From an uncultured Leptotrichia sp. (GTDB taxonomy: Bacteria; Fusobacteriota; Fusobacteriia; Fusobacteriales; Leptotrichiaceae): a DNA stretch of 64,000 bases. Below are positions 59,519 to 59,774 of this stretch, piece by piece. Positions within the stretch are counted from its first letter, which is position 1; every line of letters starts with the position of its first letter. A program made the position numbers and the translations under genes. The notes beneath the pieces are model-generated. The model did not search any database and had not been told where the DNA came from. It saw only the letters and a list, made by a program, of their open reading frames with translations. The DNA lies in the NCBI GenBank assembly GCA_963517565.1, contig CAUQGN010000005.1, forward strand, positions 30,436-94,435, read 5' to 3'.

Positions 59519-59547
59519 TTGATTTTTTTATTATAAAATGTTATAAT
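59519..59547 (+). promoter_or_regulatory. Near-consensus promoter of the candidate antitoxin sRNA
   Basis: TTGATT (59519-59524), 17 nt, TGtTATAAT (TG 59539-59540, hexamer 59542-59547). Confidence 0.6.
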
Positions 59548-59553
59548 AATGAT

Positions 59554-59628
59554 ATAAAAGGATAAAAATTCTCATTGTAGTGTTACAAATCAAAAGAGAG
59601 CCAACCCCCAAAGTAAGCTCTCTTTTTT
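59554..59628 (+). ncRNA. Candidate ~75-nt antisense/antitoxin sRNA (type I TA)
   Basis: It runs from the promoter above to the terminator at 59593-59628 and has no ORF. Positions 59569-59586 can form an 18-bp duplex (16 Watson-Crick pairs plus 2 G-U) with the SD-to-AUG region of the convergent peptide mRNA. The 3' ~35 nt are fully antisense to that mRNA's 3' end. Confidence 0.5.
59593..59628. terminator. Bidirectional intrinsic terminator shared by the sRNA and the peptide mRNA
   Basis: AAAGAGAGC (59593-59601) / GCTCTCTTT (59617-59625), with T6 on the + strand and TTTTG on the - strand. It lies 3 nt beyond the peptide stop codon. Confidence 0.7.
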
Positions 59629-59630
59629 AG

Positions 59631-59711
59631 TTATTTCCAAAATTCTTGTATTAAAATTATTACTATTTGTAATAAAATTACAACTAAGATTTTTATCAAT
59701 AACGTTCTCAT
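59631..59711 (-). CDS. 26-aa hydrophobic peptide, candidate type I toxin
   Basis: MRTLLIKILVVILLQIVIILIQEFWK, with SD AAGGAGG 9 nt upstream. It is the only plausible part of the 75-aa track ORF 59631-59858, which otherwise runs through a terminator and a promoter. Confidence 0.55.
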   Translation of the reverse strand: MRTLLIKILVVILLQIVIILIQEFWK

Positions 59712-59745
59712 TATAGTATTACCTCCTTTCTCAAGGATTGCTAAA

Positions 59746-59774
59746 ATTATATCATTTTTTGAAATGTTTGTATA
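59746..59774 (-). promoter_or_regulatory. Probable promoter of the peptide mRNA
   Basis: The minus strand reads TATACA (59774-59769), 17 nt, TGaTATAAT (hexamer 59751-59746). Confidence 0.45.

Follow-up and report, generated by a model that had tools for sequence, protein, structure and literature searches.

The locus described here lies in a 64,000-nucleotide (nt) stretch of contig CAUQGN010000005.1 from an uncultured Leptotrichia sp. (the window), where the spacer between a copZ-like HMA gene and a gene for a TPR protein holds a compact module (~260 bp) of two convergent, predicted transcription units. The minus strand carries a 26-codon open reading frame (ORF) for a hydrophobic peptide, and the plus strand a putative small RNA (sRNA) that could pair with the start region of the peptide messenger RNA (mRNA). 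The locus was read at 59100-60200, complemented by mechanical scans of ORFs, promoters, hairpins and repeats (Table 1). An initial annotation of the window had proposed a type I toxin-antitoxin locus in the style of the Enterococcus faecalis par system, and the parts that it named were all recovered: extended -10 promoters on both strands, a Shine-Dalgarno (SD) sequence followed by the 26-codon ORF, a bidirectional hairpin beyond the ORF stop codon and a direct repeat that places complementarity over the start codon.

Table 1. Positions of the module elements and of the convergent neighbouring gene in the window.
Feature	Position	Strand	Basis
Promoter of the candidate toxin mRNA: TATACA, 17 nt, TGaTATAAT	59746..59774	-	promoter scan
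Predicted peptide mRNA, ~150 nt	59590..59739	-	ends predicted from promoter and terminator
5' untranslated region (UTR) hairpin UCCUU-GAGA-AAGGA, sequesters the first five SD bases	59724..59737	-	mRNA fold
Shine-Dalgarno AAGGAGG, 10 nt upstream of ATG	59722..59728	-	direct reading
26-codon ORF (stop included), peptide MRTLLIKILVVILLQIVIILIQEFWK, single hydrophobic helix, grand average of hydropathy (GRAVY) 1.82	59631..59711	-	direct reading
Repeat, target copy in the mRNA: last SD base, AUG, codon 2 and first base of codon 3	59705..59722	-	
Bidirectional intrinsic terminator, common to both RNAs, probably also serving copZ	59592..59628	both	
Repeat, antisense copy inside the small RNA, UUCUCAUUGUAGUGUUAC	59569..59586	+	
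Predicted antisense small RNA (antitoxin candidate), ~75 nt	59554..59628	+	ends predicted from promoter and terminator
Promoter of the small RNA: TTGATT, 17 nt, TGtTATAAT	59519..59547	+	promoter scan
copZ-like HMA gene, convergent neighbour (context)	59237..59461	+	

Among nine promoter-like matches at 59200-60000, only the two promoters of the module have an extended -10 element. The 26 codons form the 3' part of a mechanically called 75-amino-acid (aa) ORF (59858..59631, minus strand). The terminator hairpin (59592-59626) begins, at the sequence level, 4 nt past the ORF stop codon; its arms at 59592-59601 and 59617-59626 form 10 bp, inner pairs leave a loop of ~7 nt, and T-runs follow on both strands. 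The simple hairpin scan caught only a minus-strand sub-hairpin, the outer 15-nt loop lying above its limit. The predicted peptide mRNA folds at -39.8 kcal/mol (z = -5.2 versus shuffles) into, in this order, a 5' hairpin, an open initiation region, a coding-region hairpin and the terminator, so that the surroundings of the AUG are unpaired and accessible to an antisense partner. The predicted sRNA folds at -15.4 kcal/mol (z = -4.2 versus shuffles). The two repeat copies match at 16 of 18 positions and both differences give G-U pairs, hence an uninterrupted 18-bp RNA duplex, as the initial annotation had read it. The predicted duplex of the two 5' parts reaches -24.9 kcal/mol, and none of 1000 shuffled sRNA 5' parts was as low (-9.6 +/- 2.6 kcal/mol). 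A 16/18 direct repeat arises somewhere in about a quarter of dinucleotide shuffles of the 449-nt AT-rich spacer (P ~0.26); within the 130 nt between copZ and the hairpin, the best match to the start-codon 18-mer never exceeded 14/18 in 5000 shuffles.

Relatives were collected from the contigs of the 75-aa ORF clusters (35 clusters) and by an exact scan of metagenome contigs with the 5' UTR pattern, which together recovered ~60 chromosomal instances of the module from metagenome contigs. All relatives with a recognisable sample source are human oral. Every contig with enough flank displays the order proB-proA, a strain-variable gene or none, the module and convergent copZ, and copZ was found wherever the flank was recovered. 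The regulatory elements are strongly conserved among these loci. The -10 element of the peptide promoter is present in all of them, and its -35 element in all except one decaying allele (L080). The hexamers and 17-nt spacing of the sRNA promoter are kept in almost all chromosomal loci as well as in two plasmid lineages described below, with single-base changes in L080 and L098, and this promoter survives a ~55-nt deletion that places it next to the copZ stop codon in two loci (L059 and L060). The stem of the 5' UTR hairpin is unchanged in nearly all chromosomal loci and the plasmids, with the exception of a GAAGG SD variant (L081-L090), while its loop is lineage-dependent (GAGA, GAUGA or GAAAGA). 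The terminator arms are likewise nearly invariant and their loop variable. Variants of this loop (window 59602-59616) read TTTGGGGG, TTACCCGG, TTGCCCGG, TTTGGAGG and TTGGCTGG; because both RNAs are encoded by the same terminator DNA, their loops remain complementary whatever the sequence.

The 26-codon ORF is constrained as a coding sequence. Its length, frame, start and stop are kept across the ~60 chromosomal loci and six plasmids, at 26 or sometimes 23 codons, with an alternative GTG start seen and one allele lacking three codons through an in-frame 9-nt deletion. In one large allele group the SD-ATG spacer is 1 nt shorter, upon which the mechanical upstream ORF ends out of frame ('...EKGGALR*') and the 26-aa ORF stays intact. 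The 75-aa ORF was accordingly rejected as a real gene, its frame being broken by the shorter spacer and only the 26 codons behaving as coding. In short-read assemblies, peptide variation is mostly synonymous (codons 2, 3, 5, 14, 15, 21 and 23), and apart from R2H the loci retrieved have only conservative amino acid replacements (V/I at codons 10 and 11; T3V). Substitutions across chromosomal and plasmid copies together are mostly synonymous or swaps among I, V, L and A. The ratio of non-synonymous to synonymous substitution rates (dN/dS) is 0.11-0.16 among the chromosomal types and 0.24-0.83 against the plasmid copies. Frameshifts of the peptide among chromosomal loci occur only in the BNJ* contigs, at A- or T-runs. 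These NCBI metagenome contigs (L001/L067, L045, L048, L050, L059, L060, L070 and L073) have indels confined to such runs; the frameshifted peptide of P0033 (BNJU01001493, the only NCBI match) was considered as a pseudogene and set aside, as its homopolymer indels look like assembly or sequencing errors.

Disrupted alleles form a distinct set. The start codon is changed from ATG to AAG in L077. L080 has a stop at Gln15, weakened promoters and a non-cognate sRNA; its -35 element is damaged and the TG of the sRNA promoter lost. A 1-nt deletion interrupts the ORF on the L. wadei plasmid pJCM16777-1 (L106), and two truncations (L057 and L091) have unrelated DNA in place of the module after about codon 10. 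Peptide null alleles thus recur, as expected for a dispensable, potentially harmful gene. Family searches gave no assignment: four variants of the peptide had no Pfam or NCBIfam match at E <= 10 other than noise (ASFV_J13L at E = 4-5 and Prli42 at E = 0.83), neither the peptide nor the mechanical 75-aa ORF belonged to a Pfam, NCBIfam or PADLOC family, and the RNA region scored at best <=29 bits in Rfam, where the gathering scores are 47-115, with no antitoxin family among the matches.

Sensitive blastn of the module against PLSDB identified unannotated homologues, ~80% identical to the module, on six complete Leptotrichia plasmids from L. hofstadii, L. wadei (two), L. shahii, L. trevisanii and Leptotrichia oral taxon 221. 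The tblastn search of the peptide against plasmids gave no match, probably owing to the low-complexity filter, whereas blastn did find these copies. Their candidate toxin promoter (TTGAAT-17-TGgTATAAT) stands at the same place as the chromosomal one, the SD hairpin has the same stem with a different loop, the 26-codon ORF encodes MDKLWIKILIIIALQIAIILIEEFWK or MEKLWIKILVIVILQTIIIIIGETWK, the terminator hairpin is richer in G+C, and the convergent sRNA promoter again reads TTGATT-17-TGnTATAAT. The predicted mRNA fold has the chromosomal layout. The repeat over the initiation region reads TTATACACTTATGG or TATACATCTATGGA, each identical in both places. Predicted plasmid-chromosome combinations pair weakly, at -6.5 and -7.6 kcal/mol versus -23.0 and -24.9 kcal/mol for the cognate ones. 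On five closely related plasmids the module adjoins RelE/RelB genes, and the flanks retrieved also contained rep, a MazF-family toxin gene and a resolvase gene; the oral taxon 221 copy has a RelB/DinJ antitoxin gene on one side and rep on the other. These surroundings are a plasmid maintenance region. On the five plasmids (L103-L108 set), the sRNA promoter is closely preceded by a co-oriented gene for a small acidic hypothetical protein of 56-62 aa, which has no Pfam match. Its gene lies directly downstream of the MazF-family toxin gene on four of them and mirrors the position of copZ.

The strongest evidence for an interaction between the two RNAs comes from comparison of the pairing sites. 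Three chromosomal specificity types (A/a, B/b and C/c), a subtype C'/c' and two plasmid types were distinguished. Type A/a combines the mRNA site GTAATACTATAATGAGA with the sRNA side GTAACACTACAA[T/C]GAGAA; type B/b, 1 nt shorter in both copies, combines GT[G/A]CATTAC[G/A][A/G]TGAGA with GTACATTACAATGAGAA; and type C/c combines GTGT[T/C]ATAGTTATGCGTA with GTGTATAGTTATGCGTA. In type C/c, codon 2 is CGT rather than AGA in both copies, the amino acid being unchanged, and in subtype C' it has become CAT (Arg to His) with a matching change in the sRNA copy. The duplex over the AUG extends over 14-18 bp across the family. We joined each distinct mRNA site to its own sRNA site, counted the pairs and used partners shuffled among loci as control. 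In the chromosomal set, 91.2% of cells are paired versus 81.1% after shuffling, with double changes at 9 of 15 positions and a covariation score of 0.464 versus 0.281, which none of 500 shuffles reached; slid registers gave <=0.11. When the plasmids are included (24 distinct pairs), 90.3% of cells are paired versus 75.9%, double (compensatory) changes occur at 10 of 15 duplex positions, and the score is 0.534 versus 0.270 (0/500 shuffles; slid registers <=0.12), shuffles failing to reach the observed value on four of five measures. Single-sided differences within cognate duplexes are compatible with U-G or G-U pairing at all eight polymorphic sites, with no C-A or A-C, a bias with a probability of 2^-8 (~0.004) under neutrality by our own calculation; the one mismatch belongs to the ATG-to-AAG null allele. 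Predicted energies range from -23 to -27 kcal/mol within cognate duplexes and from -3 to -17 kcal/mol across clearly different types, but cross-pairing between the related chromosomal types A and B still reaches ~-22 kcal/mol. Related loci, to which the initial annotation had pointed as one place where the idea could fail, therefore support it: the ORF is kept and the repeats change together.

This pattern contrasts with the constancy of the remaining module. The mRNA target site is its most diverse segment (mean pairwise difference 0.275) and the sRNA copy the second (0.172), against 0.01-0.05 for the SD hairpin, coding region, terminator arms and sRNA promoter and 0.07-0.11 for the spacer and the end of copZ. 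An sRNA type 'd' has no cognate mRNA within the sample. Type B is paired with type a in L098 and L100, over ~15 bp and at ~-22 kcal/mol.

Taken together, these data are best explained by a chromosomal type I toxin-antitoxin-like module, a reading to which we assign a probability of about 0.72. The minus strand would give rise to a ~150-nt mRNA for a membrane peptide of 26 residues with a single helix, in which the 5' hairpin, by partly hiding the SD sequence, would act as a second brake in cis. The plus strand would produce a convergent sRNA of ~75 nt from its own strong promoter, predicted from the conserved TTGATT-17-TGnTATAAT motif and the terminator. The two RNAs would overlap only at their common bidirectional terminator, outside the ORF, and could meet there via complementary hairpins. 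The 5' part of the sRNA would then pair from the SD end through the AUG into codon 3 and block translation initiation, and the duplex may also trigger its own cleavage. We infer transcription of both RNAs, toxicity of the peptide and its neutralisation by the sRNA from these sequence features; the candidate toxin role is suggested by the build of the peptide, the plasmid maintenance context and the null alleles. The position of the plasmid homologues among replication and type II toxin-antitoxin genes would fit post-segregational killing, while the chromosomal copy may stabilise the strain-variable segment or be a domesticated relic.

Several observations weigh against this interpretation. Neither a toxin family nor an Rfam antitoxin family was matched, so toxicity rests on analogy, and the module is single at each locus, unlike many chromosomal type I systems, which are multi-copy. 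Common ancestry inflates the shuffle statistics, the independent type switches numbering ~five. Read-through from copZ, rather than a separate sRNA, could deliver the antisense element. Finally, clearly non-cognate sites are combined in four loci (L010, L049, L055 and L080); the duplexes of the first three have predicted energies of -14.4, -8.2 and -9.9 kcal/mol, respectively, and their ORFs are intact despite the non-cognate sites. Either the 5' duplex is not strictly required, in which case these loci may be natural recombinants relying on terminator overlap and the SD hairpin, or the metagenome contigs are chimeric and may have been joined across the nearly identical coding and terminator stretch.

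Among the other explanations, the one that deserves most attention is a non-toxic small membrane protein tuned by antisense RNA and devoid of addiction or killing functions. Coding constraint and RNA pairing alone do not show toxicity, the peptide matches no toxin family, and the chromosomal copy is single and fixed at a site beside copZ. We nevertheless consider this explanation unlikely, since type II toxin-antitoxin genes and rep crowd the maintenance regions in which the plasmid homologues reside, and since both the layered control, with a hairpin on the SD and a ~-25 kcal/mol duplex covering the AUG, and the recurring null alleles are typical of toxic peptides. Its build points the same way: 26 aa with a hydrophobic core of ~18 aa is how known type I toxins are made. 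A different possibility concerns the origin of the antisense element, which could be the 3' UTR of copZ on the chromosome and of the preceding gene in the plasmids, with the hairpin as a plain convergent terminator and no separate sRNA. The mechanical scan found no terminator-like site between the copZ stop codon and the common hairpin, so that read-through would carry the antisense element and the hairpin, the sole plausible terminator of copZ, probably serves that gene as well, to judge from the sequence; the small co-oriented gene preceding the element on five plasmids fits too. Against this, the chromosomal loci and both plasmid lineages share the hexamers and spacing of TTGATT-17-TGnTATAAT in spite of diverging flanks, the promoter persists in two loci with a deletion in the spacer to copZ (L059 and L060), no annotated gene in that direction precedes the element on the oral taxon 221 plasmid, and a near-identical sequence stands ~30 nt upstream of an apparent gene start in Fusobacterium vincentii. 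We therefore regard the lack of a dedicated sRNA as very unlikely, and the antisense mechanism would stand even then.

It is harder still to credit that the repeats are kept alike by duplication or gene conversion at the DNA level, with no RNA function, the ORF-proximal copy as plain coding and SD sequence and the distal copy as a relic of partial duplication. Direct repeats can arise through duplication, a 16/18 repeat in this AT-rich spacer is not rare, as noted above, and the inflation by common ancestry applies to the shuffle tests used here. However, 14-18 nt would be a very short conversion substrate, and conversion predicts identical copies, whereas stable differences persist, every one of them G-U compatible (8/8). 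The same relationship holds in plasmid copies with an unrelated repeat sequence, a conserved promoter always precedes the distal copy at the appropriate distance, and the diversity of both copies exceeds that of the neutral-looking spacer. Target-site duplication was rejected as the origin of the repeat, which contains the start codon and varies between alleles while the interior is constant. A type I toxin-antitoxin-like module thus remains our preferred interpretation. Beyond it, we put forward with considerable doubt an extension in which diversifying selection favours orthogonal specificity: at least five non-cross-reacting mRNA/sRNA types in the genus, on plasmids as well as chromosomes, would act as an RNA-based incompatibility or anti-addiction system among co-resident plasmids and strains, and copper-induced read-through of copZ would add further antitoxin. 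If true, such read-through would couple metal stress to toxin control.

The module shares two general traits with type I systems, namely a gene for a hydrophobic peptide of <60 aa with its own translation signals, kept as coding, and a predicted RNA complementary to the candidate toxin mRNA, with complementarity maintained in evolution. Peptides of the Escherichia coli systems Ibs/Sib and ShoB/OhsC are 19-26 aa long, extremely hydrophobic and repressed by small RNAs, and have no sequence match to the Leptotrichia peptide. An antisense RNA fully opposite the ORF, as in Ibs/Sib, is not seen: the sole plus-strand extended -10 promoter starts 84 nt beyond the ORF stop, past the terminator, and plus-strand promoter-like matches inside the ORF are weaker. 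In the SprA1/SprA1AS system of Staphylococcus aureus, the peptide PepA1 has ~30 aa and is unrelated to the 26-aa peptide. There, as predicted for Leptotrichia, the antitoxin is encoded on the 3' side of the toxin gene with an overlap between the two, but SprA1AS acts via a 5' domain that is outside this overlap and pairs with the initiation region; unlike the predicted Leptotrichia overlap, which stops at the terminator, that of SprA1 includes the ORF (T1TAdb preprint). The Bacillus subtilis pairs TxpA/RatA, BsrG/SR4 and YonT/SR6 are similarly convergent with an antisense RNA on the 3' side (T1TAdb preprint), but their functional pairing takes place in the 3' overlap, which includes part of the ORF, and degradation is the main means of control (PMC4147584), in contrast to the conserved, covarying pairing at the start codon in Leptotrichia.

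Closest in architecture is par of the Enterococcus faecalis plasmid pAD1, where converging RNAs overlap only at a common terminator outside the ORF (PMC4147584) and oppositely transcribed direct repeats pair at the initiation region and block ribosome binding (PMC4147584; T1TAdb preprint). Convergent transcription, a common bidirectional terminator and an overlap outside the ORF are found in Leptotrichia at the sequence level, RNA II acts on RNA I as proposed here for the sRNA on the peptide mRNA, and both systems have plasmid-borne copies plus chromosomal relatives. Unlike par, which has the repeats DRa plus DRb, the Leptotrichia module has one covarying repeat of 14-18 nt; no second conserved repeat was found. 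Its pairing site occurs in several co-evolving allelic types, its host belongs to the Fusobacteriota rather than the Firmicutes, its peptide has no detectable similarity to Fst, and its RNA matches no Rfam model. A tryptophan behind the helix and the basic residue next to it are reminiscent of the Ldr/Fst signature (PMC2887945), although the stretch is too short to count. The par-style architecture proposed by the initial annotation is therefore supported, with the single repeat and the lack of a family match as caveats. As membership failed for both the peptide and the RNA in the searches made, we view the module as an analogue of Fst/RNAII and not as a member of that family.

In the literature searched, type I systems are described in Firmicutes and Proteobacteria only. 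Fozo et al. reported no homologues outside these two phyla, while allowing that apparent absence elsewhere may only reflect detection limits (PMC2887945). Fusobacteria are not mentioned in the main text of the T1TAdb paper, and the Fusobacterium transcriptome and oral toxin-antitoxin papers name only type II and III systems for Fusobacterium and Leptotrichia. The initial annotation, which knew of no description of type I loci from Fusobacteriota, agrees with this incomplete sample of the literature. The module would accordingly belong to a known kind of system, to which it would add a new family of toxin and antitoxin sequences and a new phylum, but not a new mechanism. If the interpretation is correct, a toxin family from a third phylum is present in a common human oral genus and its plasmids, where gene callers have missed it. 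The comparative evidence for RNA-RNA pairing is unusually clean: the module, 300 bp long and otherwise conserved, occurs in several specificity types with matched sites, which makes it a possible test bed for the evolution of antisense specificity. It could further serve Leptotrichia and Fusobacterium genetics, as a stabilising cassette or as a counter-selection marker, and be a template for searches of other poorly studied phyla.

Searches of other collections were negative. A profile search with the 75-aa ORF alignment in species-representative genome contigs gave 40 pattern sites, none of them confirmed, and an exact scan of the same contigs with the near-invariant 18-mer ATCCTTGAGAAAGGAGGT gave 29 unrelated chance matches, none in Leptotrichia, although proteins identical to those of the window are on record at NCBI and plasmid homologues occur in cultured Leptotrichia; either the chromosomal module is confined to non-representative lineages, or the stretch is masked there. 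In viral contigs and phage genomes, only AT-rich chance matches and no module were found.

With respect to the neighbourhood, the proteins flanking the module in the window (WP_314114047/049/051) are recorded under 'uncultured Leptotrichia sp.', in agreement with the Leptotrichiaceae assignment, and fall into 90% clusters that include L. trevisanii, L. shahii and oral taxon 225. The variable segment between proA and the module contains a 290-aa TPR protein (window 59911-60783), a 256-aa ORF, a 43-aa ORF or nothing, such variable cargo being seen in L002, L003/L004/L007 and L080-L091, and the module occupies a fixed edge of this segment. The 43-aa ORF (MAKFQVTLRD...) is hydrophilic and has weak DpnD/PcfM and DUF7644 matches; it was considered as a second toxin and rejected as an unrelated hydrophilic protein. 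An 11-bp AT-rich inverted repeat (59821-59831 / 59853-59863), followed by a T-run on the minus strand, is present in every aligned chromosomal locus, whatever gene precedes, and is probably the terminator of the upstream (TPR) gene.

A match to the sRNA promoter was also obtained outside the genus. PLSDB lists as a plasmid the 2.1-Mb Fusobacterium vincentii replicon NZ_CP084075.1, evidently the chromosome, in which a 41-nt segment (L109, 1545240-1545280) is 95% identical to the sRNA promoter and reads TTaATT-17-TGTTATAAT. As a homologue of the module this match was rejected, being generic promoter-like sequence. It lies ~30 nt upstream of an apparent gene start, on the opposite strand, which suggests that the sRNA promoter is of a standard strong type in the Fusobacteriales.

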